Part shown: positions 1 to 15,087 of the stretch, piece after piece
How the letters are laid out: every line of letters begins with the position of its first letter
Position numbering within the stretch: the stretch's first letter is position 1
Notes under the pieces: generated by a model
What the model was told of the DNA's origin: nothing
What the model saw: the letters and a program-made list of their open reading frames with translations, nothing else
Databases searched by the model: none
Position numbers and translations under genes: made by a program
DNA from: a virus
Taxonomy: Duplodnaviria > Heunggongvirae > Uroviricota > Caudoviricetes
DNA length: 15,261 nt
IMG/VR virus record: IMGVR_UViG_2545824644_000012
Location: 1 to 15,261 of that record
Strand: one strand, 5' to 3'

Positions 1-1131
1 TCAAATGACCAGTTTTTTCCATTCCTTACCACGTGCGTCGTTGTAAATATCGGTCATTTTTTGATTCGAATGTCCCAGCAAAATTTTGGTATCAATTCCC
101 TGTTCTCTGAACAATCGTTCTGATAAAGATCTCTGCTCATGGAAAGAGGGTGGGGTGCCATTAGCACGCCAGTTGTAATCCACAGAATCCCGGGCTTTTT
201 TAAATGCAACGGTTAACGTTGCTGGCTTAACCATCCCGCCGCGCTTAGCTGTCCCTTTAGCATGATGGTGGTGCAATAGCCACGGACTAAGAACGCAATC
301 GCGACAGGATGACACCACATCATCCAGGGTGAGATTTAATTTATCGCAACGCAGAGCCAGAGGGATGGCAATCCGGGTTCCTGTTTTTTGCTGTTCGACA
401 TGAAGATAACCATCCCTGATATCCGAAAATTTCATTTTGCAAATATCTGAAAGGCGCTGGCCTGTCATCAGTGCCAGCAGCATACCACGCTGTAAAAAGT
501 AACCATTCTTTTCCGCTGCATTATAAATCATCATCCACTCATCAAAGGTCAGTCGTTGCCGTGATATCCGTACCTGGGGTTTTTTTGCCGATTCTGCAGG
601 GTTAAAGCCTGGCGGGACATCGCCCGTTTGCTGGGCCTCCCGGAAAACATCGATCAGTACTTTCCTGAAAATTTGTCCCATTCTGTTATGTCCTTTTGCC
701 TTGTAATCTTCCAGCACCGATACCACATCTTTTACGGTTATGGCATCTAATGGTCTGGTACCAAAACGTTCATCAAATACTCTGAGAGGGGATGCTTTCT
801 GTTTCAGTGTGTTGAGTTTGATCTCTCCGTTTTCATATCTTTCCTGTTGAATTTTTCGGTAACTATTCAGAAAAGCAGAAACGGTTGATGGACTACCGGT
901 ATCACTAATAATTTTCTCCTGCAGACTGAGCATTTGTTCCATTTGTTGCCTGGCAAGACGGCTGTTCGCTTCTGCTGCAATAGCTTCTGCCTGTTTCTGG
1001 TCAATACTGCCGAGTCCGTGATTTTTTCCTGTTATGGGATGCCTGTAACGCCAGTAAACTTTGTTATTTCTTTTGTCAAAATACGGAGATAATCCCGGAA
1101 CTTCAGTTTTATATTTTCGTGGGCGCGCCAT
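1..1131 (-). CDS. int: Phage tyrosine integrase (lambda Int family), complete
   Basis: 376-aa ORF; C-terminal catalytic-domain motifs resemble lambda Int (HEQRSLSERL, LLGHSNQKMTDIY with the presumed catalytic Tyr); stop codon at window positions 1-3; 23-nt overlap with the upstream excisionase, as in lambda xis-int. Confidence 0.9.
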   Translation of the reverse strand: MARPRKYKTEVPGLSPYFDKRNNKVYWRYRHPITGKNHGLGSIDQKQAEAIAAEANSRLARQQMEQMLSLQEKIISDTGSPSTVSAFLNSYRKIQQERYENGEIKLNTLKQKASPLRVFDERFGTRPLDAITVKDVVSVLEDYKAKGHNRMGQIFRKVLIDVFREAQQTGDVPPGFNPAESAKKPQVRISRQRLTFDEWMMIYNAAEKNGYFLQRGMLLALMTGQRLSDICKMKFSDIRDGYLHVEQQKTGTRIAIPLALRCDKLNLTLDDVVSSCRDCVLSPWLLHHHHAKGTAKRGGMVKPATLTVAFKKARDSVDYNWRANGTPPSFHEQRSLSERLFREQGIDTKILLGHSNQKMTDIYNDARGKEWKKLVI

Positions 1132-1357
1132 CTTCCAGTATCCTCTTCAAAGCAGGGTGATCTGTGGCGATCACTTCCGGCTTGTTTACCATTCCGACAA
1201 AGCGAGCTCGAGGATCCACTCGCCAGTGTCTTCCAACTTTTTTGGGGAGAGGAAATATCATTCCGGCTTTAGCGTATTTACTTAACGTGCCCGGAGTCGG
1301 GACCGGGTCACTGAATTCCTCTTTTGCCCACTCAGTGAGAAGAATAAGTCTTGCCAT
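1109..1357 (-). CDS. xis: Excisionase (lambda Xis-like)
   Basis: 82-aa ORF immediately upstream of and overlapping int; sequence aligns by eye with lambda Xis (LTEWAKE, IFPLPKKVGRHWRV). No strong Shine-Dalgarno seen. Confidence 0.75.
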   Translation of the reverse strand: MARLILLTEWAKEEFSDPVPTPGTLSKYAKAGMIFPLPKKVGRHWRVDPRARFVGMVNKPEVIATDHPALKRILEDGAPTKI

Positions 1358-1421
1358 GAGAGTTGTTCGCTAATCATGGTCGCCGCCACTATAGCTTGCG
1401 GGCGACGACCGGGGTTGAACA

Positions 1422-3893
1422 TTAAAAATCAGCCTGACTCGGGAGCAGTTTTTGCCAGATGGCTGAAACGTATTTTGCCTGGTAACGAGCATCGTGCAGC
1501 GCGTTATGGCGTTCACCTTCGAATGGAATAGTCGTTCTTGCGTCGAAATCCATCACCAGTCCCAGAGCAACCATCGTTCTTACATCGCGATCATTGGTGA
1601 AACGCCACGGGCAGGGGAGCCCCTGTCGTTCATATGAACGGCGTAAAATCACGTTGTCGAAAGTTGCACCGTTACCCCAGACCTGAACAAAAAATTCACC
1701 GGAGTTTTCGTCGATAAATTCCCGTAGTTGCAGCAGTGCATCATCCAACGGGATTTCATCGGTCAGAATGGCGGATTGTGCTTCGCGTGACTGTTTCAGC
1801 CACCACTTAATGGTGTCCCGATCGATGACCCCGCCTGCGGTTTCCAGATCGATAGTTTTGCTGAATTCTGGCCCCATCTCTCCGGTTGCCGGATCAAAAA
1901 ACTTACCGGCTATAGCGTTTATTGGCGCATCAGGATTTTTTCCCATTGTTTCAAGGTCAATCATCAGATGGTGCCACAACCTGCTGGTGGATGTGATTTC
2001 ATGATGACCGTTCACTTTAATTAAGGGATTTGCTGTCTCGCCAGTTTTATTATCGCTGGCGTGATACTGATCGCTGCCAGTGTTCTCCTTGTGCAGATGT
2101 TCAGTGCCTTCCATTTCCTCCGGAGCATTTTCCTGAGCTTCAGCCTGATTCTCTTCATCGAATGTTTCCTGGTAGGTTGCGTTCCCCATCACCGCACCAC
2201 AGTCAGGACAGTTGCCGCCACCGGTCTGACCGCATGCGGTGCAAACTTTTTCCAGTTCCTGTTGCACTGCTGGTTCTGGTTGTTGTTCTTCTGGCCCGTT
2301 TTGTTGCGTATCCGGGCTGTTTTGTTCCGCTTCTGGCTCATTTTGTTTCACGTTGGGCTGATTCAGGTCCTCAGCGTCGCGACTCTGGATCCCTTTCACC
2401 CATTTCGGATCATCCGGGTCGCTAATCCCTTCAACAAATTCACCACGTGATGCAGCAAGCAATTTATCGGCGTCAGGCTGGCTGATATTGGCTGCCTGCA
2501 TAATTTTGTTTACTTCGTCAGCGGTAACTTTTACCGGCTCTGGTTGTTCGGAATCTTCAGTGCTATCCACATTTTGCGGTAAGCCCGTGTATGTGCCATT
2601 TTTTCGGGCAAAATATTCTTCTTTTGAGATTTCGGTACCGCCGGCAGCCAGCGCCCTGTCCAGACCAGAAAGTTTGTTTGCCCTGCCGTATTTTTCCCCG
2701 CCCTTATCGGTAAAGACGAAATAAAATGGTCCTTCACGCTCTACAGATGGTTCAGCTTCCACCAGGATTTCATTTTTTTGAGTATCGGATTCTGCCGTCT
2801 CCACTGGAGCAGTTTGTGCTGCTGACTGCTGGAGAGCATTAGCAGAGCTCTGGTCTGTTTCTTCATGTTCAAACACGCCCTTTGTCGTCAGGTATTCGCT
2901 GATATATTTGTTCAGTGCAACGGGATCTTTGTGAATATCGATCGGACGTTCGCGAACAAGGCCAAAAATAGTCTGACGGTCATAGGCAAGTGCTTCGGGC
3001 TGTTTGCGCATTGATGCTGAGATACGCTTCCAGTCTTCGCGATCCTTGTCGATAACCTCATTTGTCGCCCAGCGATGGATGGTACCGTCAATGTTTCCTG
3101 CATCCACATCACCGGGCCAGAGGGCGCAGGCCAGTTCATTGTCGAGTGTTTTCCATGTCTGTTTGTATTCGCGGCGAATGGCAACAGTGACAGCCCCGGT
3201 TTTTTCAGCAGCGTTTTCAGTGTTCTGTTGGTTGACTCTGGCGCGGGCGAGATCAACAACAGACGTGTATTTTCCGGTTTCCTTGCGTTCACCTTCGCGA
3301 CGTTTTTTCCAGATGCGCATCTCTGCCTGAATTTCAGGCCATTTAGCGCCAGGCTCACATTTATTCTTAACCCACCCGATGGCATGCAGTTTAAGTTCAG
3401 GATACATGGCGTTAACTTCTGGCATTTTCATCAACGCTTCAACGATATGTCCGCCGAATGTTGCCATGTCTTCCTGTAGTAATTCCTGTGCGCTAATCAC
3501 CATATCAACGGTGATGTTTTCGCATGTGTCGAATTTAACCAGGACTGCGTTCTGTACTTCAGGGGACAGCTTGTCAAAATTGACGTTCATCGGATCGGAT
3601 TCGGGTTCGACCGGGACAAAGGACGCAGACTCCTCATCCCAGCGGTTTTCCTGCATATATTCGGTATCCCAGGAATCGAGGGCAGGGCGGGGTATGCCGG
3701 GTTTATCCTCGCAGACAATAAATTTATAAGCGCAGTCCTGAGCTGCCGGGAATTGCTCCAGAAATTGCCAGTGAAATTTTGCGCGTGCGCGACGCTCATC
3801 ACCGGCTTCAATGGCAGTGGCCACCGCAACAGCGCTATCTTCTTCTATGGCCTGCTCGTCAGGAATAGCAGCGCAAATAAAGATTTTATTCAT
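1422..3893 (-). CDS. Large RecE-like exonuclease (exodeoxyribonuclease VIII-like) with C-terminal DEDDh 3'-5' exonuclease domain
   Basis: 823-aa ORF. C-terminal ~180 aa carry DnaQ/RNase T-type motifs ([34 protein letters not shown]). Central acidic Q/E/P-rich low-complexity stretch with a CxxC-x8-CxxC zinc-ribbon ([16 protein letters not shown]). Sits where lambdoid phages carry exo/recE, upstream of xis-int. GAGG about 11 nt before the ATG. Confidence 0.7.
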
Positions 3894-3988
3894 TGTGTTT
3901 TAACCTCATTACAGATTTCAGGGTGAACGAATCCCTGCCATTGCTGGCATTTTTAATCCGTTGGTATGGCGTTAATATGGCTGGCGGG

Positions 3989-4177
3989 TTATCCAGCCGG
4001 TGTTTCGTTATTCAGGTACAGCGATACTTTTTTTACCGGGAGGCATTCACCGGGGATTTTTTGTTCGTCCCTTACCTGAATGCAGGATGACTTACTGTCA
4101 TAAATTCCGGTAATCACATTCTGCGGCTCACCCGTTATAAGAAAAACGGTCATCACCAGTGCAAATGCTGAAGTCAT
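3989..4177 (-). CDS. ydfD: YdfD-like small lysis protein (Qin ydfD homologue)
   Basis: 62-aa ORF with hydrophobic N-terminus (MTSAFALVMTVFLITGEP) and EQKIPG.C.PV.KV pattern recalled from Qin YdfD; GGAG 7 nt upstream; ATG overlaps the dicB stop (ATGA). Confidence 0.6.
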   Translation of the reverse strand: MTSAFALVMTVFLITGEPQNVITGIYDSKSSCIQVRDEQKIPGECLPVKKVSLYLNNETPAG

Positions 4178-4362
4178 TGACGTTCTCCGAAAATACCAAG
4201 TTTAATAAGGGCAATTCGGGAAAGAATGGAATTATCATTGAGCAGATAAGGCTCATATTTCCGCATATTAATGGCATCCTCAGTAAACGCTTTATTACTG
4301 AGCAGAACACCAATATCAAAACAACCTTCAGACGTATTAACGTTTGGTAATAACGTTTCCAT
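4174..4362 (-). CDS. dicB: Cell-division inhibitor DicB homologue
   Basis: 62-aa ORF; N-terminus METLLPNVNTSEGCFDIGV..FTEDAIN.RK matches recalled K-12 DicB (MKTLLPNVNTSEGCFEIGV...FTEDAINKRK); GAGGA 7 nt upstream of the ATG; same length as DicB. Confidence 0.75.
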   Translation of the reverse strand: METLLPNVNTSEGCFDIGVLLSNKAFTEDAINMRKYEPYLLNDNSILSRIALIKLGIFGERQ

Positions 4363-4379
4363 TATCGCGTCCTCAACAA

Positions 4380-4535
4380 TGAATTTTGTGATGCAGTGCC
4401 TGGTGCCTCCAGGTGACGTTAACCAGTTAACAATTAACGCCGGATTGTTAGTTGATGTCTGTTACGCAAGTAAAAGACCGCTTGTTTTAACTGTTCCGCG
4501 TGCGCATAGCCGCATTCACCGCATCACAAAATTCA
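4380..4535. repeat. Near-perfect 19-bp inverted repeat pair (tGAATTTTGTGATGC(a/g)GTG) separated by about 118 bp
   Basis: Plus strand 4380-4398 tgaattttgtgatgcagtg; reverse complement of 4517-4535 is tgaattttgtgatgcggtg (18/19 identical). Lies between the DicF-like element and the dicB ribosome-binding site. Confidence 0.8.
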
Positions 4536-4539
4536 CTTT

Positions 4540-4579
4540 AAAAAGGGCGGATATCCATTTCCGCCGAATCACCAGAAAA
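4540..4579 (-). ncRNA. dicF: DicF-like small RNA (shortened variant) with intrinsic-terminator 3' end
   Basis: Minus strand reads UUUCUGGUGAUUCGGCGGAAAUGGAUAUCCGCCCUUUUU. The 5' UUUCUGGUGA and the GGCGG...CCGCCC stem plus U-run resemble recalled DicF (UUUCUGGUGACGUUUGGCGG...GCCGCCC). Position immediately upstream of dicB matches Qin gene order. Boundaries approximate. Confidence 0.45.
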
Positions 4580-4941
4580 GTGATAACAGAGGTTGTTGTG
4601 GCTGGGGTGTCACTTAAGCGTATGGTCAACCTGACAACCCGGTGTCCTCAACGGGGGAAGGAATAACCCCGCCATACTTACCGCCGCGCCATTTCGCGGA
4701 TTACCACAACCGGAAGCGCACGATCGAATTAAATTTAACGACGACCTATACAGAGAGACGAACTTCGCCGTGCGCTTTCGTGTTGTGTGCCTGCTTTAAC
4801 CACGTCAGGCGAGGTGGACTCGTTATTCCCCAACAACAAGGATCTTGTTAATCTGGATATCCACAACAAGAATAAGAGTATTCAGAGTGATCGCTGAATT
4901 AACGGCAGCAATGGCGGCTATTCCTTAATTACCAGGCATCA

Positions 4942-5094
4942 TTAGTCAGAGTTTCTTGCTAACCAGCGATGCGCGCCAGCTTCGGTTTTAAACGTTTTAC
5001 TTTTGGTATACGTCATCGCGGTAAACGTGCCGTCCTGGTTGGGGAAGACGCCGCACACCAGAGATTCATTGTTGCCAAGATTGAGCATATCCAT
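4942..5094 (-). CDS. DUF1391-like small protein (YdfA/YdaF family)
   Basis: 50-aa ORF below the track length cutoff: MDMLNLGNNESLVCGVFPNQDGTFTAMTYTKSKTFKTEAGAHRWLARNSD; GAGG 4 nt before the ATG; first gene downstream of the leftward promoter, as ydfA is in the Qin dicB operon. Family assignment from memory. Confidence 0.55.
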   Translation of the reverse strand: MDMLNLGNNESLVCGVFPNQDGTFTAMTYTKSKTFKTEAGAHRWLARNSD

Positions 5095-5272
5095 GTTGAC
5101 CTCATTTACCCTTAACGCCGGGTCGCGGAACTAAAAACCTGCTGCGCTGTTATACAAAGTGTTCCCGCCGTCATGTTCATACGCCTCGGGCTGGCTACTT
5201 AACCCCTGACCACTGCCTGGTAACTCGAAGTATTGCCCTGCGTTCTGTGGGGCGGGGTGGGTTGATGAATAT

Positions 5273-5310
5273 AATCTACAAGTAAAAACTGTTTGATGTC
5301 AACAATAAAT
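5273..5310 (-). promoter_or_regulatory. Leftward sigma70-type promoter (-35 TTGACA, 18-bp spacer, -10 TAGATT) overlapped by a repressor operator
   Basis: Minus strand: TTGACA is the reverse complement of 5297-5302 and TAGATT of 5273-5278. Plus strand 5283-5310 contains aaaaaCTGTT-N7-AACAAtaaat, the same half-site pattern as the palindrome in the repressor/cro intergenic region. Confidence 0.5.
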
Positions 5311-5366
5311 AACTGTCATTTTGGACGAAGAAAACTCCCTCATCAGTGGGAGCAAAAGCGGTGGGC

Positions 5367-5654
5367 TTAAAGATTAGCGGGGAATTGTCGACGGGCGTGA
5401 ACCACGTTTACAATTTCAATACCTGAAGTTGTCACCCGGTACAAAATTATGTAATTGGGGTGAGCCACAATCTCGCGCAAACCTGGCACTCTGTCGCTTG
5501 GCGGATATAAATACGGATGTTCGGATAACGGCAGGACGCAAGCTCTTAAGCGTTGCCATAAGCGTTCTGCCGCATCTATGTCGAAACGGGCAATATAACT
5601 AGTTATATCATCCAGATCGGTATCTGCGCTTTCAAGCCATAACACGGGTAACAT
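5367..5654 (-). CDS. parE2: ParE/RelE-family type II toxin (ParE2-like)
   Basis: 95-aa ORF starting directly after the antitoxin stop (TAA-ATG); RelE/ParE-like size and sequence; partner of a PaaA2-like antitoxin. Confidence 0.8.
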   Translation of the reverse strand: MLPVLWLESADTDLDDITSYIARFDIDAAERLWQRLRACVLPLSEHPYLYPPSDRVPGLREIVAHPNYIILYRVTTSGIEIVNVVHARRQFPANL

Positions 5655-5846
5655 TTACTGCTCTCTCCGTTCCTTGCGAATTTTGGCAAAGCGTTCTGCC
5701 ATTCTGCGCTCAACTTCATCATGTGGAATAGCAGGACGTGGATCAGCAAGGCTTGCGGCTACTTTTGCGCGTAACCATTCGTTATAACTGTTTTCTTGCT
5801 CAACGGTTTCAAATTCAGAAACCATTGGTGAAAGGGCTGTATTCAT
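5655..5846 (-). CDS. paaA2: PaaA2-like antitoxin (63 aa)
   Basis: Using the internal Met gives MNTALSPMVSEFETVEQENSYNEWLRAKVAASLADPRPAIPHDEVERRMAERFAKIRKERREQ, near-identical to the recalled E. coli O157 PaaA2. AGGAGG 6 nt upstream of this ATG; the longer track ORF (to 5909) would overlap the repressor gene. Confidence 0.85.
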   Translation of the reverse strand: MNTALSPMVSEFETVEQENSYNEWLRAKVAASLADPRPAIPHDEVERRMAERFAKIRKERREQ

Positions 5847-5875
5847 GACATACCTCCTCTTACAGGTGGTAGAGA

Positions 5876-6277
5876 TTACGCTCGGTGCCCCTTTTGGGCT
5901 GCGATCCACCGAGCAACAGTTTCTTCCATTGACTTTTTCTTATTTTTTATTTCCTGAAGCATTTTTTCTTGGTCTTCATCGGGAAATGCACTAAAAGCTT
6001 GGAGCAATTCACGTTGGCGAGGGCCAATTTTCATCGTGTCAGGAGTAAAAATTTGCTCTCCCTCTTCTGGAGGTAATAAAAACCAATGTAGTGGATGCCC
6101 TGTAACCTCGACCAACTTATCTAAGCTGGAGGCTTTAGGTGTGGCTTTTCCACTGACCCATTGCTGAACAGTTTGCTGTGTCACACCGACTCTACGAGCA
6201 AGTTCAGCTTGGCTCCATCCTGTTTCTTTGAGGAGCCTGCTAATTCTGTACATAGATACTTCTAGGGCCTTCATCAT
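5876..6277 (-). CDS. paaR2: HTH (XRE-family) repressor, DicA/PaaR2-like; probable prophage repressor
   Basis: 133-aa ORF with helix-turn-helix (SQAELARRVGVTQQTVQQW); divergent from a Cro-like gene across an operator-containing intergenic region; immediately upstream of the PaaA2/ParE2 pair on the same strand. No Shine-Dalgarno upstream, so possibly leaderless like lambda cI. Confidence 0.7.
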   Translation of the reverse strand: MMKALEVSMYRISRLLKETGWSQAELARRVGVTQQTVQQWVSGKATPKASSLDKLVEVTGHPLHWFLLPPEEGEQIFTPDTMKIGPRQRELLQAFSAFPDEDQEKMLQEIKNKKKSMEETVARWIAAQKGHRA

Positions 6278-6288
6278 TATTCGATTTT

Positions 6289-6347
6289 ACAGGTAAATAC
6301 TGTTAAAAGCACCACAATAAAAAACTGTTGATCATGAACAGTTTTTT
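6289..6347. promoter_or_regulatory. Operator region between divergent repressor and cro-like genes
   Basis: 6319-6347 aaaaaaCTGTTgatcatgAACAGtttttt has perfect 11-bp inverted arms around a 7-bp spacer; a second ACAG-N7-CTGT element lies at 6289-6303. Divergent promoters were not resolved confidently. Confidence 0.5.
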
Positions 6348-6385
6348 ATTGTAGCCTTTATCTATGAACTTCAGAGGAGGGCAAC

Positions 6386-6646
6386 ATGCTCAATAGCACC
6401 CGTGAAAAAATTAAGCAGAAATACACACAGGCTGAAATAGGACGCTATATGGGAGTAACCCAACAAACTGTTTGGCAATGGTTTAGCTTGGGTATTCCTC
6501 CCAAACAGGTAATCCCTTTATGCCAACTAATGCAGTGGGGGGTTACTCCTCACGAACTCCGACCTGATATTTATCCTAACCCAACAGACGGCTTGCCTGC
6601 TGAGTTTCAGACTAGCACACAGCCAGCGACGGGAGTTGATTCATGA
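6386..6646 (+). CDS. Cro-like HTH regulator (YdaS family)
   Basis: 86-aa ORF; GAGGAGGG Shine-Dalgarno; motif GVTQQTVWQW..GIPP...ELRPD typical of YdaS/Cro-like proteins; divergent from the repressor. Confidence 0.7.
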   Translation: MLNSTREKIKQKYTQAEIGRYMGVTQQTVWQWFSLGIPPKQVIPLCQLMQWGVTPHELRPDIYPNPTDGLPAEFQTSTQPATGVDS

Positions 6647-7068
6647 AAATCAAGCATGAGCACATCCGCATGGCGATGAATGCCTGGGCATATCCTGACG
6701 GTGAGAAAGTTCCCGCAGCTGAAATAGCCCGGACTTATTTCGAACTGGGGATGACGTTCCCGGAACTGTACGACGACACTCATCCTGAGGCCCTGGCTCG
6801 TAATACCCAGAAAATTTTCCGTTGGCTGGATAAAGACACCCATGATGCTGTTGAAAAAATTCAGGCTCTGTTACCGGCGATCGAAAAGGCGATGCCGCCT
6901 TTGCTGGTGGCCCGTATGCGCAGTCACAGTTCTGAGTACTACCGGGAGATTGTCGAACGGCGGGATCGGCTGGTGAAGGATGTCGACGATTTTGTTGCGT
7001 CAGCGGTCGTTTTGTATGACCAGATAAATCGCGGCGGCCCGGCAGGGAATGCTGTGGTGATGCACTAA
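6643..7068 (+). CDS. YdaT-family protein (CII-like regulator / putative toxin)
   Basis: 141-aa ORF beginning MKIKHEHI, as recalled for Rac YdaT; ATG overlaps the cro-like stop (ATGA), matching the ydaS-ydaT arrangement. Confidence 0.6.
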   Translation: MKIKHEHIRMAMNAWAYPDGEKVPAAEIARTYFELGMTFPELYDDTHPEALARNTQKIFRWLDKDTHDAVEKIQALLPAIEKAMPPLLVARMRSHSSEYYREIVERRDRLVKDVDDFVASAVVLYDQINRGGPAGNAVVMH

Positions 7069-7090
7069 AAGCACGGTGTTCGGGGGTTTT

Positions 7091-8059
7091 ATGAGCAGCA
7101 AGCTTCATGGTCTTGTCTGGGAAGGATGCGCCTTCACTGGCATGATCTTATCAAGGGTGGCAGTAATGGCCCGTCTTGCAGATTACAGCAATGACGAGGG
7201 GGTGTCATGGCCTGCTATGGAAACGATCCGGCGTCAGATCGGTGCCAGAAGTGAATCCACCGTGAAATCTGCGATTGCAGAACTGGCGAAAGAGGGCTGG
7301 CTGACGAAGGAAGAGCGTAAGATCGGTGGGCGTAACGTAAGCAATATCTATCGGCTTAATGTGGAAAAACTCGAAGCAGCGGCAGCGGCGGCGCGTGAGG
7401 CATATAAACCGAAAAGAAAAATTAGCCCGGCAAAAAATGACCCGTTAACAGTTGACCCGTCAAATATTGACCCCTCAACGGTTGACCCGTCAAATTCTGA
7501 GGGGTCAACCATTGATAAAAAACAGCCGATTAGGGGGGCGATGATTGACCCCGATCCGTCAGTATTAAAACCTGATCCGTCAGATAAAAGATCTTCTTGT
7601 CCGGACGTTTCACTTCCGGACGAAAAAAAATCATCTCCGGTTGAACGCTTTCTGGATAAACACCCTGATGCGCATACGTGGAATGTGCCGAAGCGACAGT
7701 GGGGAACCCGTGATGATATTACCTGTGCGCAGTGGATCTGGGGGCGTGTTGTTGCGCTGTATGAACACGCAGCCAGTGATGATGGTGAGGTTTCTCGCCC
7801 CAGAGAGCCAAACTGGACGACATGGGCTAACGATGTCCGGATGATGCGCATGCTGGATGGCCGCAGTCACCGGCAGATTTGTGAAATGTTCAGTCGGGTG
7901 CAGCGGGATCCGTTCTGGGTAAAAAATATCATGAGTCCGGCAAAACTGCGCGAAAAATGGGATGAACTGGTCATTCGTCTTGGGCGTGGGCCTGCGCAGA
8001 GTTGCGTGAATCATATTTCTGAACCGGACACTGAAATTCCACCGGGTTTCAGGGGGTAA
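7091..8059 (+). CDS. Replication initiator (lambda O-like / YdaU-like, N-terminal winged-helix)
   Basis: ORF upstream of the DnaC-like gene; N-terminal winged-helix region (VSWPAMETIRRQIGARSESTVKSAIAELAKEGWLT); iteron repeats lie inside the gene. Start placed at ATG 7091 (GGGGG 4 nt upstream); the track's GTG 7076 has no ribosome-binding site. Confidence 0.7.
   Translation: MSSKLHGLVWEGCAFTGMILSRVAVMARLADYSNDEGVSWPAMETIRRQIGARSESTVKSAIAELAKEGWLTKEERKIGGRNVSNIYRLNVEKLEAAAAAAREAYKPKRKISPAKNDPLTVDPSNIDPSTVDPSNSEGSTIDKKQPIRGAMIDPDPSVLKPDPSDKRSSCPDVSLPDEKKSSPVERFLDKHPDAHTWNVPKRQWGTRDDITCAQWIWGRVVALYEHAASDDGEVSRPREPNWTTWANDVRMMRMLDGRSHRQICEMFSRVQRDPFWVKNIMSPAKLREKWDELVIRLGRGPAQSCVNHISEPDTEIPPGFRG
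7438..7585. repeat. Iteron-like repeats inside the initiator gene; candidate origin of replication
   Basis: TTGACCC direct repeats at 7452, 7467 and 7482 (15-bp period), an inverted copy GGGTCAA at 7502-7508, another TTGACCC at 7545, an A-rich segment at 7511-7525, and two GATCCGTCAG repeats at 7553 and 7574. Analogous to ori-lambda inside gene O. Confidence 0.45.
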
Positions 8060-8065
8060 CTGACC

Positions 8066-8818
8066 ATGAAAGATATCGCGACAGTTGCAGTTGGTGTTCT
8101 GGAACGCATCCGCAGACTGGCTCCTGAGCACGTTCCCGTGCCGTACAGTACGACGGAGGAGTGGCGCGAGTGGCAACTTGCCGAAGGCCGGAAATACTGC
8201 GAGGAGATTAACCGCCGGAATCGTCAGTTGCGGGTGGAAAAAATCCTGAACCGTTCGGGCATCCAGCCGCTGCACCGCAAATGTTCGTTCGCGAATTACC
8301 AGGTGCGGAACGACGGGCAGAAACATGCGCTGAGCCAGGCTAAATCCATCGCTGAGGAAATGATGACCGGTTATACAAACTTCGTGTTCAGCGGGAATCC
8401 GGGAACCGGAAAAAATCATCTGGCGGCGGCTGTGGGTAATCGTCTGCTGAAGGCTGGTAAATCCGTGATAGTGGTCACCGTGGCGGATGTGATGAGCGCG
8501 TTACATGCCAGCTATGACGACGGGCTGTCAGGGGAAAAATTTTTGCGTGAACTGTGCGAAGTGGACCTCCTGGTTCTTGACGAAATTGGCATCCAGCGTG
8601 AGACGAAAAACGAGCAGGTGGTACTGCACCAGATTGTTGACCGCCGGACGGCATCACTGTGCAGTGTCGGGATGCTGACAAACCTGAATCATGCCGCAAT
8701 GAGCACGCTTCTTGGTGAGAGGATTATGGACAGGATGACCATGAACGGTGGTCGCTGGGTGAGTTTTAACTGGGAAAGCTGGCGTCCCAATGTCAGCCAT
8801 CTGAGAGTATTGAAGTAA
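8066..8818 (+). CDS. DnaC-like helicase loader (IstB-like AAA+ ATPase)
   Basis: 250-aa ORF; Walker [16 protein letters not shown] and Walker [10 protein letters not shown]; overall very similar to recalled E. coli DnaC ([13 protein letters not shown]..., MLTN..., LGERVMDRM). Confidence 0.9.
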
Positions 8819-8840
8819 TTTTTATCCGGAGGAAATTTTA

Positions 8841-9557
8841 ATGGAAACCGTTTTTGACGCACTGAAAGCACTGAAAAGAGCCTCTTCACAGGTAGTGGCG
8901 GCCCGCCTTGGAATCAGCCGTGAAGATGCGGTCAACGAACTGTGGAAACTGAAGCGCCGTGGTGAAGCGGATAACAAGGGGTCGATGTGGTGGCTGATTC
9001 AGGCTGGTGAAAGTGAACCTGTGTCACAGGTACCGAAAGTGACAGCGCAAATGCTGACTGAGGCGATTGAACAACATGGCCCACAAACGGCGGATGAACT
9101 GGCACTGATGTTCGGAATTACCTCCCGCCGGGCGAATTCATCGCTGGCGATGGCAATCAGCAAAGGGCGTCTGATTCGCGTGAATCAGGGCGGTAAATTT
9201 CGTTACTGCATACCGGGCGCTGATTTACCGGCAGAGCCGGAAGCTGCATCCGTAGCGGAAACGGATGGTAAAGCCTTTCCTCAGCCAGCAGGAGTTGCGT
9301 TACCGGTACAGGAAGCGGCGACACAGGAAGAAATTAAAACAGATACTGTGGCGGACATTGTGCAGTCGCTGCCATCGTTTACCGAAACGAAAGCAGATGA
9401 CCTGATTCTACCATCGCTGAATGTGGCTAACCGCGAGCTGCGCCGGGCGAAAAGTCATGTCCAGAAGTGGGAGCGTGTCTGTGCCGCGCTGCGGGAACTG
9501 AACAAACACAGGGATATTCTCCGGGATATTACCACCACCAGAGAGCAGCAACAGTGA
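8841..9557 (+). CDS. Hypothetical protein with two winged-helix-like segments and a C-terminal coiled-coil (possibly DUF1627-like)
   Basis: 238-aa ORF with GGAGG Shine-Dalgarno; two HTH-like segments ([17 protein letters not shown] and [26 protein letters not shown]); function unknown. Confidence 0.6.
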
Positions 9558-9871
9558 GTGGCTGGAAGACGTGGTGCCGGGCGGAAATCCTGATACTCCG
9601 GCAGTGTGCGGGAACAATGACGGTGGAATGCATCGGGATGCTTATTGGTCGTAGTGAGGCTGCGGTCAGAACGAAAGCGCGGGAACTGGGTATTAGTATG
9701 ATGTTACGGGGTGATTATCACCAGTCAGCAAAATATCCGCAGAGTGATATTGAGCTGGCGCGACAGCAGCATCAGCGTGGCGTGTCGAGGAGAGAAATCG
9801 CCAGAAAATTCGGAATGCCGTTGCGCACAGTGAATAACTACGTTTATTTCGACAGGAGGGTGTCTGCGTGA
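9554..9871 (+). CDS. Small HTH protein, NinH-like C-terminus
   Basis: GTG start overlapping the upstream stop (GTGA); alternative ATG at 9617. C-terminal [21 protein letters not shown] resembles lambda NinH (EVARRLKCSRGTVRKYV). Confidence 0.5.
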
Positions 9872-10095
9872 AAATCCTGTATCAGGATTACGGCCCGGTG
9901 GGGCAGGTGCTTATCAGCAGTACTGTAATGGAGTTCCGGAAGCATAACCGTGTGGTGGATTCTGTGCTGTTAACCTGTCCGGGGATATCGGCGAGTCGTG
10001 CAGGTGTGTTTATTATGAAGACGAAATTATATGGCAGTAAGGCGTGGATAAAGAAGGCGTATCGTGTAGCGTTGCAGGAGGTTAACAGTGAGTGA
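9868..10095 (+). CDS. Hypothetical 75-aa protein
   Basis: GTG start overlapping the upstream stop; AGGAGGG 7 nt upstream; no recognisable domain. Confidence 0.45.
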   Translation: MKILYQDYGPVGQVLISSTVMEFRKHNRVVDSVLLTCPGISASRAGVFIMKTKLYGSKAWIKKAYRVALQEVNSE

Positions 10096-10399
10096 AATTA
10101 AAGAAATGCCGGTAGTTCGTGACGAATATGGCTACTGGACACATCCTGAATATGAAAAATTCTGTGATGGTCGGGAGAATATTTCAACGGAAGAATTTAA
10201 CGCGTGGATGGAGGCAAATAATCTTCAGTGGACTATCTGCACTATGGATGAAGATGATTTTAACCTGGACGCAGATGGCCCTGATATTTCAGCATGGGAA
10301 CCGGAACGACCAGAGGGCGATGGCTGGTTTATTGGTTCCATTCATGATACGGAAGATGGCCCGGTTTGTGTCTGGTTGCGAAATAAGGCTGAAGCATAA
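10088..10399 (+). CDS. Hypothetical strongly acidic 103-aa protein
   Basis: GTG start with AGGAGG 6 nt upstream, overlapping the upstream stop. Roughly 29 Asp/Glu against about 7 Lys/Arg; several conserved-looking Trp residues. Confidence 0.55.
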   Translation: MSEIKEMPVVRDEYGYWTHPEYEKFCDGRENISTEEFNAWMEANNLQWTICTMDEDDFNLDADGPDISAWEPERPEGDGWFIGSIHDTEDGPVCVWLRNKAEA

Positions 10400-10745
10400 A
10401 GGAGATAAACCAACTAACAACTAAATACTGAAGATTTAAATCAGAAACGATTTTTATTAAATCCTTAACCGGAGGGATTCCTGCACCCTCAGAATATCAG
10501 GAGGCCGCCCGAAAGGGCGGTAAGAAATGAAACATTATTTAGAAAAAATTACCCACGAAAGAGCAGAACAACAGAGTTTCTGTTTTTCATTCTGTTTATA
10601 GTGTTGATGATACCGATATCCCCGCTATTACTGGTCTGGATAATTGGAAGGACATTTGAACCAGTTATTGAGCTATATACCGATGTGACATGGGAATCAT
10701 TCAGCGCACTGCACAATAAAATTAATCCGTATAAGGAAAACTGAT

Positions 10746-11303
10746 ATGAGCACTATTACCAGAGAACGCGCGGAGATTAAATCATACATCACAGGCTTCC
10801 TGAGCGACTCGGCGCACGATAACAAGTCTTCAGACAGCCTGCTGGCTAATGTGTTTCGTATCGCGCTGGCATCACTGGAAGCAGAGCCGATAGCAATGGT
10901 AGTGCCTGATGAAATGGATTTGCTTACCTGCCATCTCGACGGTGTAACTAAAACATATGCTGATGGCTGGAACGTCTGCCGCGTCGCCATGCTTCAGGCC
11001 GGAAACTTTCGGGAAAATAAGAATTCGTCAACCAACAATTTTCGGGAAATCTCGGAAACGTCAACCAGATCTCCGATAACTCCGGATGGCTGGATAAGCT
11101 GTACTGAGCGAATGCCTGAAAAGAGCCAGAACGTGCTTATTTCGATGAATATCGATAGCGAGGCAGGGCCATTAATATATTCCGCACGCTATCTCGGAGG
11201 CACGTTCCGGCGCGGAGGTATAGCAGTTAGTCCGGGTAATGATCTTAGGCAAGCAACCCACTGGATGCCGCTACCAGAACCGCCGCAGGAGGTGAATCAA
11301 TGA
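10746..11303 (+). CDS. DUF551-like phage protein
   Basis: 185-aa ORF with AAGGA Shine-Dalgarno; C-terminal pattern W.S..ERMPE...HWMPLPEPP recalled as typical of DUF551 proteins. Confidence 0.6.
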   Translation: MSTITRERAEIKSYITGFLSDSAHDNKSSDSLLANVFRIALASLEAEPIAMVVPDEMDLLTCHLDGVTKTYADGWNVCRVAMLQAGNFRENKNSSTNNFREISETSTRSPITPDGWISCTERMPEKSQNVLISMNIDSEAGPLIYSARYLGGTFRRGGIAVSPGNDLRQATHWMPLPEPPQEVNQ

Positions 11304-11383
11304 CCTGGCCTGAAGCATTCACAACGGTAGGAATTGCGATGGCGGTGGCGCTGGTGGTGTATTCGATTTGCCGCTGGGGATAA
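11300..11383 (+). CDS. Small hydrophobic peptide (27 aa), putative membrane protein
   Basis: MTWPEAFTTVGIAMAVALVVYSICRWG; ATG overlaps the DUF551 stop (ATGA) with GGAGGTG 7 nt upstream; below the track length cutoff. Confidence 0.35.
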   Translation: MTWPEAFTTVGIAMAVALVVYSICRWG

Positions 11384-11390
11384 AAACGGT

Positions 11391-11418
11391 TTGCGGGAAA
11401 AGGATAGTTAAGTAGAAT
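11391..11418 (+). promoter_or_regulatory. Candidate hok mRNA promoter (-35 TTGCGG, 16-bp spacer, -10 TAGAAT)
   Basis: Hexamers at 11391-11396 and 11413-11418; the predicted transcript 5' end (about 11420) coincides with a sequence complementary to the region downstream of hok. Confidence 0.4.
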
Positions 11419-11593
11419 TGCAGCGGGTGCTTGAGGCTATCTGCCTCGGGCATGAACACCAACGGCAGATAGAGAAAAGCCCCAGTTAACATTACGCGTC
11501 CTGCAAGACGCTTAACATTAATCTGAGGCTCAATCCATGCTGAACACATGTAGGTTAGCCTCTTACGTGCCGAAAGGCAAGGAGAAGCAGGCT

Positions 11594-11749
11594 ATGAAGC
11601 AGCAAAAGGCGATGTTAATCGCCCTGATCGTCATCTGTTTAACCGTCATAGTGACGGCACTGGTAACGAGGAAAGACCTCTGCGAGGTGCGAATCCGAAC
11701 CGGTCAGACGGAGGTCGCTGTCTTCGTAGACTACGAATCTGAGAAGTAA
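11594..11749 (+). CDS. hok: Hok/Gef-family type I toxin (HokD/RelF-like)
   Basis: 51-aa ORF MKQQKAMLIALIVICLTVIVTALVTRKDLCEVRIRTGQTEVAVFVDYESEK with the Hok signature; AAGGAG upstream. The in-frame upstream ATG at 11537 (track ORF) would add a 19-aa extension. Confidence 0.85.
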   Translation: MKQQKAMLIALIVICLTVIVTALVTRKDLCEVRIRTGQTEVAVFVDYESEK

Positions 11750-11756
11750 GAGACCT

Positions 11757-11816
11757 GGCGGGGGAGTAATCTCCCGCCACCTCTGATGTGTCAGGCATCC
11801 TCAACGCACCCGCGCT
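11757..11816 (+). other. hok mRNA 3' element: hairpin plus fold-back sequence complementary to the mRNA 5' end
   Basis: Hairpin GGCGGGGGAG-taat-CTCCCGCC at 11757-11778; 11799-11816 CCTCAACGCACCCGCGCT is complementary (one bulge) to 11420-11436 GCAGCGGGTGCTTGAGG, about 380 nt upstream. Confidence 0.5.
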
Positions 11817-11868
11817 TTACCATACTGAAAATGCTGTTTGAATGTTCATCTCTGAAAGAGGACTATGA

Positions 11869-12213
11869 ATGAAAAAGGTATTGATTGCAGCACTTATTTC
11901 CGGTGTGTCTTTTGGCGCTTTTGCACAGCAGGGTGGTTTCCAGGGGCCAGAAGCAGAGCGTTCAACAGTAGCGCAGGCAAAAGAACTGAAGGATGATGCA
12001 TGGGTTATCCTTGAAGGGAGCATCGTTAAAAAAGTGGGTGATGAACGTTATGAGTTTCGTGACAATAGCGGGACAATTGTCACGGATATTGATGACAGCG
12101 TATGGGCCGGGCAGAATGTTTCTCCTAAAGACAAAGTAAGAATTGAGGGTGAAATTGATAAAGACCTGAGCAGTGTTGAAGTTGATGTAAAGGCACTGAA
12201 ATTATTAAAGTAA
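11869..12213 (+). CDS. YgiW/YdeI (BOF) family periplasmic OB-fold stress protein, with signal peptide
   Basis: 114-aa ORF; signal peptide MKKVLIAALISGVSFGAFA; AGAGGA Shine-Dalgarno; recognisable BOF-family sequence; followed by an intrinsic terminator, i.e. moron-like. Confidence 0.8.
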   Translation: MKKVLIAALISGVSFGAFAQQGGFQGPEAERSTVAQAKELKDDAWVILEGSIVKKVGDERYEFRDNSGTIVTDIDDSVWAGQNVSPKDKVRIEGEIDKDLSSVEVDVKALKLLK

Positions 12214-12231
12214 CCGCCCCTGCTTGTTAAG

Positions 12232-12258
12232 CCCGTCTTACTGACGGGTTTTCTGTTT
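12232..12258 (+). terminator. Rho-independent terminator
   Basis: CCCGTC-ttact-GACGGG stem-loop followed by TTTTCTGTTT, directly after the YgiW-like gene stop. Confidence 0.55.
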
Positions 12259-12285
12259 GTACATTCCGGCGTATTGCCTTACAAT
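12257..12285 (+). promoter_or_regulatory. Candidate sigma70 promoter (-35 TTGTAC, 17-bp spacer, -10 TACAAT)
   Basis: Hexamers at 12257-12262 and 12280-12285, upstream of the 12335 gene and the DUF968-rusA-Q operon; a TGACA-N5-TGTCA palindrome follows at about 12308-12322. Confidence 0.4.
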
Positions 12286-12334
12286 TCGCGCAGTCAGCCT
12301 GAACAACTGACACCTGCTGTCACCGGAGAATCCG

Positions 12335-12607
12335 ATGACACAACACATAAAATCCCACAATTCTGAAGCCGACCCGGAAATTAAGCAGGGGAGGCGTTTT
12401 CGTGCGCCTCAGTATGGCTGGTTTCACTATCTGTTCTGTACGATCGATGAGGCAGATATGCTTCAAGAGGCGTATCTGCGTCGCGGTGTCCGTGTGGAGC
12501 GGAGTCTGAACGCTGATCGTCTGACCTGGACCGTTTCTGTATATCTTCCTGTTCGTGCACATCTGCCACGGACACATGCCTGCTACCGTCAGCGCGTCTG
12601 GAGGTAA
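12335..12607 (+). CDS. Hypothetical 90-aa protein (occupies the position of rem in Qin)
   Basis: ORF with GGAG 7 nt upstream; its stop TAA lies inside the ribosome-binding site of the next gene (GGAGGTAATGTG), indicating translational coupling; no recognisable domain. Confidence 0.5.
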   Translation: MTQHIKSHNSEADPEIKQGRRFRAPQYGWFHYLFCTIDEADMLQEAYLRRGVRVERSLNADRLTWTVSVYLPVRAHLPRTHACYRQRVWR

Positions 12608-12608
12608 T

Positions 12609-13658
12609 GTGCGGGTATTACTTCGACCTGTTCTGGTTCCGGAACTCGGGCTGGTGGTCCTTAAGCCCGGTCGTGAATCATTGCCAGTTTTTCATCGCGG
12701 CAGGGTGCTGGTGGAGCCGGAACCGAAAAACATGCGCGGTCTGCCGTCCGGAGTCGTTCCTGCCGTTCGCCAGCCGCTGGCAGAGGATAAAACATTACTG
12801 CCATTTTTCAGCGATGAGCGGGTTATTCGTGCAGCAGGTGGTGCAGGTGCACTGTCTGACTGGTTATTACGTCACGTGAAATCCTGCCAGTGGCCACACG
12901 GCGATTATCATCACAGCGAAACCGTCATTCACCGTTACGGTACCGGCGCGATGGTGTTGTGCTGGCACTGTGACAACCAGCTGCGCGACCAGACATCAGA
13001 ATCACTCGATCAACTTGCTCAGCAGAATCTGGTTGCCTGGATGATTGACGTCATCCGTCACGCAATAAGCGGTACGCAGGAGAGGGAGTTATCGCTGGCC
13101 GAATTATCCTGGTGGGCGGCCTGCAGTCAGGTGGTGGATGCACTACCTGAGGCAGTAGCGCGTCGTTCGCTGGGATTACCAGCGGAAAAAATCCGCTCCG
13201 TATACCGTGAGAGTGACATCGTACCGGGAGAACAGACAGCCATCAGCATACTGAAGCAGCGCACAAAAAATATTGCGCTGCCACTTCACGTCCACCAGCA
13301 ACAAAATCCACCACAGAAAAAAACGGTTGTCAGTATCGCCGTTGATCCGGAGTCTCCTGAATCGTTCATGAGGCGGCCTAAACGTCGCCGTTGGGTTAAT
13401 GAGAAATACACGCGCTGGGTAAAGACACAGCCGTGTGCGTGTTGTGGTAAGCCTGCTGACGATCCGCATCACCTGATTGGTCATGGTCAGGGGGGAATGG
13501 GGACAAAGGCCCACGATATTTTCACGCTACCGTTGTGCCGGGAGCACCACAACGAACTTCATGCAGACCCGCTGGAGTTTGAGAAAAAGTACGGCTCTCA
13601 GATTGAGTTAATTTTTCGTTTTCTTGATCACGCCTTTGCGACTGGCGTGCTCGGGTAA
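12609..13658 (+). CDS. DUF968-like protein (YdfU family) with C-terminal HNH-like Cys/His motif
   Basis: GTG start at 12609 (GGAGG 4 nt upstream) gives 349 aa; C-terminal CACCGKPADDPHHLIGHG...CREHHNELH resembles an HNH/zinc-binding nuclease motif. The track start at 12555 lacks a ribosome-binding site and overlaps the upstream gene. Confidence 0.65.
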   Translation: MRVLLRPVLVPELGLVVLKPGRESLPVFHRGRVLVEPEPKNMRGLPSGVVPAVRQPLAEDKTLLPFFSDERVIRAAGGAGALSDWLLRHVKSCQWPHGDYHHSETVIHRYGTGAMVLCWHCDNQLRDQTSESLDQLAQQNLVAWMIDVIRHAISGTQERELSLAELSWWAACSQVVDALPEAVARRSLGLPAEKIRSVYRESDIVPGEQTAISILKQRTKNIALPLHVHQQQNPPQKKTVVSIAVDPESPESFMRRPKRRRWVNEKYTRWVKTQPCACCGKPADDPHHLIGHGQGGMGTKAHDIFTLPLCREHHNELHADPLEFEKKYGSQIELIFRFLDHAFATGVLG

Positions 13659-13670
13659 AAGAGGTGACTG

Positions 13671-14044
13671 ATGCTCATAGATTTGGTTTTACCTTACCCG
13701 CCGACGGTGAACACTTACTGGAGACGCCGTGGCAGCACATATTTTGTATCAAAAGCAGGGGAGCGTTATCGCCGGCAGTGGCGCTTATTGTTCGCCAGCA
13801 GCGACTGAAATTAAGCCTGTCCGGACGGCTGGCAATAAAAATTATTGCAGAGCCACCGGATAAGCGTCGTCGCGACCTGGACAATATTCTGAAAGCACCG
13901 CTGGATGCGCTGACGCATGCGGGAGTGCTTATTGATGACGAGCAGTTTGATGAAATCAATATTGTACGTGGTCAGCCAGTATCTGGTGGACGTCTGGGGG
14001 TGAAGATTTACCCCATAATGCTTGAAGGGCAGGTCAAAAAATGA
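13671..14044 (+). pseudogene. rusA: rusA Holliday-junction resolvase, apparently disrupted by a -1 frameshift
   Basis: From ATG 13671 (AAGAGG 6 nt upstream) the frame reads MLIDLVLPYPPTVNTYWRRRGSTYFVSKAGERYRR, matching the RusA N-terminus, then stops at 13806-13808. The RusA C-terminus (AVALIV...PDKRRRDLDN...) continues in the -1 frame to 14044. The shift maps to the G-run near 13774-13776. Confidence 0.65.
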
Positions 14045-14862
14045 AACTGGAAGATTTACCGAAATACTACTCCCCAAAATCCCCCGGCCTGACTGATGCA
14101 TCGGCCTCAACGTCAAAAGATGCGCTGAGTATCACTGATGTGATGGCCGCGCAGGGCATGACACAGAATCGGGCTGAGATGGGGTTTTCTGCGTTCCTTG
14201 GGAAAATGGGCATTAGTATGAATGACAGAGAGCGGGCAACAGAATTGCTGACAGAATATGCACTCAGTCGGTGTGATCGCGTGGCGGCGTTAAGAAAACT
14301 CCCGGCAGAAATAAAACCGGCAGTGATGCGAATTATGGCTTCGTATGCGTTTGAAGATTATGCCCGTAGCGCGGCGAGCAAAAAACAGTGCCCCTGCTGT
14401 CACGGAAAAAAATTTATTGAAAGCGAGGTTTTTACAAACAAGATCCAGTATCCGGATGGTAAGCCGCCAGTGTGGGCAAAGTGCACAAAAGGCGTGTATC
14501 CGTCTTACTGGGAGGAATGGAAAAAAGTCAGGGAGGTGGTAAAAGTTGCCTGTCCGGAGTGTGGCGGAAAGGGGGAGGTTTCCACCGCCTGTAAAGATTG
14601 TCGTGGGCGCGGTGTTGCCATTCATCGTGAAGAGTCGGAAAAACAGGGTGTGCCGGTTTTCAGAAACTGCCAGCGTTGTGGTGGGCGTGGCTATGAAAGA
14701 TTACCTTCAACGGAGGCATTTAATGCCATATGTAATGTAACCGATGCCATATCTCTTGATACATGGAAAAAAACAGTTAAACGTTTTTACGATACGCTGG
14801 TGGTGCAGTTTGATATTGAAGAAGCATGGGCAGAACAACAACTGAAAAAGGTGACCAGATAG
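14041..14862 (+). CDS. Putative Q-type late antiterminator (QuuQ-like) with DnaJ-type CxxCxGxG zinc-finger repeats
   Basis: 273-aa ORF; ATG overlaps the rusA stop (ATGA). Cys motifs CPCCHGKK, CPECGGKG, CKDCRGRG, CQRCGGRG. Position between rusA and a downstream promoter-like region matches lambdoid Q. Confidence 0.55.
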   Translation: MKLEDLPKYYSPKSPGLTDASASTSKDALSITDVMAAQGMTQNRAEMGFSAFLGKMGISMNDRERATELLTEYALSRCDRVAALRKLPAEIKPAVMRIMASYAFEDYARSAASKKQCPCCHGKKFIESEVFTNKIQYPDGKPPVWAKCTKGVYPSYWEEWKKVREVVKVACPECGGKGEVSTACKDCRGRGVAIHREESEKQGVPVFRNCQRCGGRGYERLPSTEAFNAICNVTDAISLDTWKKTVKRFYDTLVVQFDIEEAWAEQQLKKVTR

Positions 14863-14867
14863 CTTTG

Positions 14868-14895
14868 TTGATTTTTCCCGAATCTGTGGTAAATT
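14868..14895 (+). promoter_or_regulatory. Candidate late (pR'-like) promoter downstream of the Q-like gene
   Basis: -35 TTGATT (14868-14873), 16-bp spacer, -10 TAAATT (14890-14895), immediately after the Q-like stop. Confidence 0.35.
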
Positions 14896-15087
14896 TGCCC
14901 TAACGATGGGCGTTTTATGCCTGACGTTAGAAGATTTTTACACCCGTCGCCAGGCGGTTTTTTTTATGACTGAAATCACGCCAGTACAGTAAACGCGCTG
15001 GTGGCGGTGAATACCGGTCTTTCAGCTTGCTGGCTTTTTTGACAAGAGTTATTGGTGTGTCACGTTAACCGGAAAAGGGAAAAAGAC

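Follow-up and report, generated by a model that had tools for sequence, protein, structure and literature searches.

What purpose would a 3'-5' exonuclease serve in the early operon of a lambdoid phage? The question is raised by a gene in a 15,261-nt stretch of Caudoviricetes DNA (IMG/VR record IMGVR_UViG_2545824644_000012, positions 1 to 15,261), here called the window. An earlier reading of the letters alone (the original prediction) had described the gene at positions 1422-3893 as encoding a RecE-like protein of 823 aa that ends in a DEDDh exonuclease domain and has no annealase partner in view. RecE-RecT is a textbook recombination system and a main recombineering tool, yet the first ~600 residues of RecE have no explained role; a 2023 review lists no known function for the RecE N-terminal domain (PMC11611040). 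In the window protein, the scaffold and its constrained zinc ribbon are kept, while the head has been swapped to one of opposite predicted polarity and the annealase has been dropped. The open reading frame (ORF) is real, running from ATG to stop behind a GAGG ribosome-binding site, and its modules are given below with the confidence score of an AlphaFold2 model (pLDDT) and the ratio of nonsynonymous to synonymous substitution rates (dN/dS). All dN/dS values were computed against the orthologue of phage Tritos.

1422-3893, minus strand: exonuclease gene, complete ORF from ATG to stop, 823 aa (ORF reading)
3904-3907, minus strand: ribosome-binding site GAGG, 10 nt before the ATG (read from the sequence)
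3129-3893, minus strand: aa 1-255, YdfE_N-type N-terminal module (89% identity to K-12 YdfE aa 1-255; dN/dS 0.12)
2874-3176, minus strand: aa 240-340, helical domain within the region assigned to PF27432 YdfE_C (pLDDT 95-98)
2751-2858, minus strand: aa 346-381, first acidic disordered linker (pLDDT <50; net charge -7 to -8 per 40 aa)
2589-2741, minus strand: aa 385-435, small domain of a beta-hairpin and a helix (pLDDT 93-97)
2019-2474, minus strand: aa 474-625, RecE-shared segment comprising a conserved helix, a Q/E/P-rich acidic linker, the zinc ribbon and a second acidic linker
2199-2243, minus strand: aa 551-565, zinc ribbon CxxC-x7-CxxC
1455-1973, minus strand: aa 641-813, DexA/Rv2179c-like DEDDh 3'-5' exonuclease domain (Pfam PF16473)

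The identity of the head was examined by domain search. Residues 641-813 matched Pfam PF16473, the Rv2179c-like 3'-5' exoribonuclease domain, over its full profile (1-177) with an E-value of 8.9e-62 and a score of 208 bits against a gathering cutoff of 27. There was no other Pfam match at E<=1 in the 823-aa protein, with a local Pfam copy that predates the YdfE models. The DEDDh residues are D646 and E648 (the DxE in MIDLETMG), D746 (WGNGATFD) and H796-x4-D801 (HNALHD), and none of the five changes in any relative, fused or stand-alone, whose alignment covers them. The only solved relative found by sequence search was PDB 8KEL/8KEN (E 2e-5), deposited as 'Exodeoxyribonuclease', which we take to be T4 DexA because of its 227-aa length and a crystal-structure paper in NAR in 2025. 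BLASTP detected no similarity anywhere in the protein to the RecE nuclease (RecE aa 592-866, PF12684), which is a PD-(D/E)XK 5'-3' exonuclease. The claim of a DEDDh rather than a RecE-type C-terminus was therefore correct. Collectively, these results strongly suggest that the head is a metal-dependent 3'-5' exonuclease carried on a RecE-family scaffold. The protein is not new to the databases: PHROG 2082 matches it over its full length, and a near-identical RefSeq protein, WP_464289453.1, is named '3'-5' exonuclease'.

The likeness to RecE was found to be confined to part of the protein. By BLASTP, only aa 474-625 matched K-12 RecE, at 66% identity to RecE aa 454-591 (E 8e-58), and this is the stretch that directly precedes the nuclease domain in RecE. 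The NCBIfam RecE equivalog model NF007259 gave 255 bits against a cutoff of 1269, with aa 453-625 as the best-scoring stretch. The N-terminal Exonuc_VIII domain (PF06630) of RecE had no match in the 823-aa protein, and its homologues have YdfE_N and YdfE_C there instead: PF27430 (YdfE_N), PF27432 (YdfE_C) and PF16473 are precomputed for close homologues, including one that is 97% identical. The label 'RecE-like' thus stands for aa 474-625 and falls for the N-terminus and the catalytic part. Residues 240-340 are distantly related to the central part of RecE, as phmmer segment mapping showed this helical domain to overlap RecE central-region matches in relatives.

Compared with RecE of the K-12 Rac prophage, the window protein is of similar size (823 versus 866 aa), lies likewise late in a leftward early operon with few genes before xis and int, and shares the zinc ribbon and acidic linkers of RecE aa 454-591 together with the distantly related central helical region. 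It differs in having a DEDDh 3'-5' head where RecE has a PD-(D/E)XK 5'-3' head, and an N-terminus of the YdfE_N/YdfE_C type where RecE has Exonuc_VIII. In Rac, recE is partnered by recT, whereas no recT follows the window gene. A closer counterpart is found in the K-12 Qin prophage, where the operon reads dicF-dicB-ydfD-ydfE-(xis)-int. Since its first 255 residues are 89% identical to those of K-12 YdfE, the 823-aa ORF is, judged by this identity, the intact form of the Qin pseudogene ydfE (b1577). The K-12 gene is cut by IS2 after codon 255 and retains neither the zinc ribbon nor the nuclease, nor any later part of the scaffold.

The AlphaFold2 model of aa 1-640 consists of three folded domains (aa 1-205, 240-340 and 385-435) separated by low-confidence linkers (aa 346-381, 440-456, 502-546 and 577-640). 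The first of these domains is a confidently folded alpha/beta domain (pLDDT >95), and the N-terminal module had no structural neighbour in the PDB. The two linkers with pLDDT <50 at aa 502-546 and 577-640 place predicted disorder on both flanks of the zinc ribbon. Within aa 501-620, stretches of 40 aa carry a net charge of -5 to -11, and Q, E and P together make up as many as 19-20 of 40 residues around aa 501-560, in agreement with the acidic Q/E/P-rich stretch that had been described. The zinc ribbon itself (CTAC-x7-CPDC) uses four of the 11 cysteines of the protein, and these four are conserved in RecE. Its presence had been predicted correctly, but with a spacing of x8 rather than x7 and with a start at 2196, 3 nt short of the actual 2199. 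The motif CxACGxxGGxxCPDCGxVxGDATY, common to this protein and the RecE zinc ribbon, also closes the C-terminus of Dam-type DNA methylases encoded by a ~32-kb Enterobacter phage and by a Klebsiella prophage record (phage records H138-H140). At another locus (L036, 4465-5445, minus strand), a methylase gene with this ribbon lies immediately 3' of a gene for an exonuclease like EcD, a stand-alone E. coli protein discussed below. In these sequences the zinc ribbon acts like a small domain that can be moved from one phage DNA enzyme to another.

Constraint was measured along the whole length of the protein. The folded modules and the nuclease gave dN/dS values of 0.11-0.15 (0.11 for aa 256-340, 0.15 for aa 381-473 and 0.11 for aa 636-823), and the acidic linkers 0.42-0.90, with the highest value for aa 341-380. 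Within the RecE-shared segment, dN/dS was 0.06 over aa 474-500 and 0.03 over aa 551-575. All modules are under purifying selection, the zinc ribbon most of all.

Is this combination of scaffold and head peculiar to one gene? A homologue search with the whole protein was dominated by near-identical E. coli sequences, and diversity surfaced only when aa 1-640 were used to search a 50%-identity representative library. This returned 248 relatives, onto which segments of the query and of RecE were mapped. Both scaffold types, YdfE and K-12 RecE, were found with both nuclease heads. The K-12 RecE-type N-terminus is joined to a DexA head in P0131, P0137, P0242 and P0270, and the YdfE-type N-terminus to a RecE nuclease in P0129, P0201 and P0229. 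Heads have been exchanged among relatives on the same scaffolds, and the N-terminal scaffold is modular.

A third C-terminal tail was present on the same scaffolds in 14 relatives (P0130, P0133, P0134, P0150, P0158, P0180, P0184, P0193, P0206, P0222 and others; locus L011, 5001-7717). It has Rad52-like sequence motifs, is followed by a Sipho_Gp157 gene and is labelled 'exonuclease' by PHROGs. Its match to Pfam Rad52_Rad22 was below threshold (E 0.027), an hhalign comparison with human RAD52 (a sequence entered by hand) gave E 0.019 with a probability of 2.4%, and a PDB profile search with the tail returned no match. The third tail may be a Rad52-like annealase fused to a RecE-type scaffold. 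Since the scaffold is fused to the RecE nuclease and possibly also to an annealase, the window protein appears to be tied to recombination-type DNA transactions, which argues against an unrelated process. In one further relative of 703 aa (P0199), the K-12 RecE-type N-terminus and half of the zinc-ribbon segment run into a RecT fragment (PHROG 148 positions 92-265). This looks like a deletion of the nuclease domain that fused recE to recT.

The type of head was accompanied by a difference in gene neighbourhood. For the RecE-head relative P0129, the one such locus examined, the next gene encodes RecT (Pfam 2e-36), and for K-12 RecE nuclease DNA in E. coli genomes, recT lay under the match in all five of the matches listed. 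DexA-head genes, by contrast, lead directly to xis and int in all six contexts examined (the window, Tritos, L009, L012, L013/L014 and L015). No gene for an annealase (RecT, Redbeta, Erf, Rad52-like or Sak4) was found in the window, in the rest of the 47-kb prophage to which it belongs or in five related loci. None is annotated across that prophage, and a PHROGs scan of ten window proteins, among them the hypothetical and DUF products encoded in the rightward early region, revealed none; the complete Tritos genome likewise has no annotated annealase. Nor does an annealase gene adjoin the stand-alone DexA-like gene in a Salmonella prophage or in an N15-like phage-plasmid.

Thus, where the original prediction saw no annealase gene between the exonuclease gene and xis, there is in fact a gap of only 64 nt between the stop of the one and the start of the other, and neither a RecE-type nuclease in the protein nor an annealase in the operon or beyond the window in the prophage was detected. 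The structural claims of that reading were right, apart from small corrections, and its interpretation is partly supported. Its proposal of a role different from classical RecET recombination is reasonable, given the opposite predicted polarity and the direct succession of xis and int in the six contexts; the role itself we infer.

A lambdoid prophage sits next to ompW, and the window comprises its left arm and early region. All 15.3 kb of the window match two bovine E. coli chromosomes, and the window differs from one of them (NZ_AP042495.1) at 7 nt, of which three fall inside the exonuclease gene (S423L, A567V and one synonymous change). The prophage is 47 kb long and of the Qin type, with ompW as its insertion site. 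Read along the minus strand, the features are, in order, repressor, relB, relE, DUF1391 (ydfA/ydaF-like), a DicF-like spacer, dicB, DUF1482 (ydfD-like), the 823-aa ORF, xis and int. The exonuclease gene belongs to the leftward early operon dicB-ydfD-exo-xis-int, ahead of xis and int, and the order dicF-dicB-ydfD-exonuclease is common to K-12 Qin and the complete phage Tritos. The neighbouring features are as follows.

4174-4362, minus strand: dicB, upstream of the exonuclease gene on the same strand
3989-4177, minus strand: ydfD-like DUF1482 gene, between dicB and the exonuclease gene
1375-1408 (approximate), minus strand: hairpin in the exonuclease-xis spacer (dG -22.7 kcal/mol, z -3.3)
1109-1357, minus strand: xis, downstream of the exonuclease gene
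1-1131, minus strand: int, downstream of xis and followed by the ompW attachment site
5367-5846, minus strand: relBE toxin-antitoxin pair, immediately following the prophage repressor gene (5876-6277), which shares its strand
11425-11749, plus strand: hok/sok toxin-antitoxin locus (sok RNA 113 bits, Rfam RF01794; Hok/Gef coding sequence annotated at 11594-11749)

Because of this gene order, and because no promoter-like or terminator-like site was found on the minus strand between the dicB and ydfD-like genes (3989-4362) and the exonuclease gene, we infer that the latter is co-transcribed with dicB and ydfD and that the repressor controls this transcription. The hairpin before xis has counterparts of unrelated sequence at the equivalent spot in Tritos, L009 and L015, which suggests a conserved structural signal, for example for processing or attenuation before xis-int. 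The spacer before dicB (4363-4941, minus strand, especially ~4546-4565) is homologous to the spacer that encodes the DicF small RNA in K-12 and Tritos. The window equivalent retains the 5' TTTCTGGTGA and, T-run included, the terminal hairpin, with ~19 nt gone from the middle, which the alignment presents as a shortened variant. The Rfam DicF model had no match in the window, and the sole match at this site was a sub-threshold one to STnc100 at 4330-4547.

The prophage as a whole is defective. In L001 and L008, which hold the remainder of the prophage, an ISEc12 element (IS21 family) splits the tail assembly gene T, frameshifts affect ydaS, rusA and a tail-fibre gene, gpG is interrupted by an internal stop and only part of gpU is present. 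Despite this decay, the 823-aa ORF has remained intact. The defects could nevertheless prompt the view that the protein is a functionless, decaying chimera born of illegitimate recombination between recE and a DexA-like gene, and disrupted copies do exist: K-12 ydfE is the one cut by IS2, and the copy of phage 606R7 is split into two ORFs. However, the length is 816-824 aa in nearly all of the 120 closest clusters, dN/dS is 0.18 over the whole protein besides the 0.11 of the nuclease domain, the catalytic residues are invariant, and the architecture recurs with two scaffold types and in distant relatives. The view of a dead chimera, already very improbable, is contradicted by this conservation.

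What, then, would the head do? One guide is T4 DexA, a DNA exonuclease of 3'-5' polarity with a part in recombination-based intron homing and in the scavenging of host DNA, from which it supplies mononucleotides (PMC12153337). The window protein resembles DexA in its PF16473 family membership, its DEDDh catalytic set and its predicted activity as a phage 3'-5' DNA exonuclease. It differs in that its head is fused to a 640-aa scaffold and belongs to a temperate phage, whereas DexA is a stand-alone protein of 227 aa with extra loops from a lytic phage with modified DNA. The DexA residues for tetramer formation and for recognition of 5-hydroxymethylcytosine (5hmC) are only partly kept. DexA D90, which is tetramer-forming, corresponds to D718. 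Of the two 5hmC-recognition residues, W152 corresponds to T766, at a position variable among relatives, and D169 to D782, which is Gly in most relatives; the alignment is uncertain at both sites.

We put forward, with about an even chance of being right, that the window gene encodes a modular early-operon protein whose RecE-family scaffold carries a DexA-type head for the trimming or degradation of 3' ends in phage DNA metabolism. Its homologues, T4 DexA and E. coli EcD, suggest that the head would remove nucleotides at free 3'-OH DNA ends by two-metal hydrolysis. Judging from gene position, transcription with dicB and ydfD would start at the repressor-controlled leftward early promoter, so that the protein would be made mainly after induction. 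The other partners of the scaffold suggest that it would deliver the head to whichever DNA ends or host partner RecE addresses. There, the protein may process recombination or replication intermediates with host functions, like DexA in T4 intron homing. Unlike RecE-RecT, it would make no 3' tail for a dedicated annealase. We favour 3'-end processing because the other heads of the scaffold are recombination enzymes, because the gene sits in the recombination slot of the early operon and because a part for DexA in recombination-dependent intron homing is documented.

Several points weigh against this proposal. On duplex ends a 3'-5' exonuclease leaves 5' tails, which are no substrate for RecA loading or the known annealase pathways, so that it is not obvious how the protein would promote recombination. 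The Pfam family takes its name from the exoribonuclease Rv2179c, and the preferred substrate could thus be DNA or RNA. A PDB structure search gave the scaffold no structural neighbour that would show its binding target, and in the literature we found no study of the scaffold-DexA protein or its fused relatives; the fused protein is present in sequence databases under generic names. Furthermore, an intact gene in a defective prophage also fits a function of benefit to the host, as does its abundance. Of 5426 complete E. coli genomes, 3529 have at least 80% of the whole gene and 3977 (73%) have DNA for the DexA-type head, with up to 7 copies per genome. For comparison, K-12-type RecE nuclease DNA is present in 1730 (32%), less than half as many.

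One such benefit would be defence. In 2025, the T4 DexA structure was reported together with a stand-alone E. coli homologue, EcD (GenBank HAK9828821.1), which was reported to digest 5hmC-containing T4 DNA and not unmodified DNA and, when expressed from a plasmid, to protect cells from T4, a strategy that the authors named HREX (PMC12153337). The published EcD forward primer matches IMG/VR viral contigs, where it starts a 189-aa EcD-like ORF with the reported Ala78. The encoded protein is 38% identical to aa 644-817 of the window protein. EcD is not a fragment of the window gene, as it begins MIDTET and the EcD-like protein reaches only that identity to the domain. By analogy, the window gene could encode a prophage defence or exclusion nuclease of the EcD/HREX type, whose head degrades incoming phage DNA with modified bases such as 5hmC and so shields the lysogen. 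The homology to EcD, the intact ORF in a decayed prophage and the prevalence of the head all fit this explanation. However, the residues linked to the phenotype are not all kept: the D90-equivalent site, Ala in EcD, is Asp in the window protein (D718), T766 stands for W152, and the equivalent of D169 is Asp here and Gly in most relatives. The gene also occupies a recombination-gene position in an early operon that is expected to be silent in lysogens, and it had no match among PADLOC models, in a library older than HREX. Both proteins are DexA-like DEDDh exonucleases in E. coli, but EcD stands alone, the EcD-like gene is followed by a Dam methylase gene, and the defence phenotype was shown for EcD and not for the scaffold-fused family. 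Defence would moreover leave the 640-aa RecE-shared scaffold unaccounted for. Overall, we consider this explanation unlikely.

Other stand-alone DexA-like exonucleases, encoded by temperate enterobacterial phages and phage-plasmids (N15-like YDC107_1 and Salmonella phage 118970_sal3), are 53-57% identical to the C-terminal domain of the window protein and differ from it in size (189-199 aa) and in having neither scaffold nor zinc ribbon. In 118970_sal3, the 55%-identical homologue lies just upstream of int, the position equivalent to that of the window gene. Its operon (L007, 3001-3540 and 4998-5567) includes a match to the PHROG family of deoxyribonucleoside 5'-monophosphate phosphatases, which hints at a link to nucleotide-pool handling. 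This neighbour, like the release of mononucleotides from host DNA by DexA (PMC12153337), would suit the other classical role of T4 DexA, in which host or competitor DNA or nucleic-acid fragments are degraded during lytic growth to feed or manipulate the nucleotide pool. Bulk degradation, however, needs neither a large RecE-shared scaffold nor a constrained zinc ribbon, and in the annotation and a PHROGs scan no endonuclease that would make entry sites was evident in the operon. Lambdoid phages are not known to degrade the host chromosome, which also counts against a nucleotide supply. We regard such a role as rather improbable, slightly more so than defence.

The 3'-end-processing proposal can be carried one step further. 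It is possible, although we advance it tentatively and with clearly less confidence than the proposal itself, that the N-terminal ~600 residues of RecE-family proteins are a general delivery platform, which in enterobacterial temperate phages brings interchangeable heads (a 5'-3' exonuclease, a 3'-5' exonuclease or a Rad52-like annealase) to one common target. The DexA-head form, the commonest in E. coli, would then define an annealase-independent, 3'-end-directed pathway by which phage DNA is processed. The role of the scaffold can be tested by comparing heads on one platform. Should modified or foreign DNA be the substrate of the window protein, as is reported of EcD, the gene would represent a very widespread prophage-borne defence. 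If the platform reading is true, the family would give direct access to the question of what the RecE N-terminus does.

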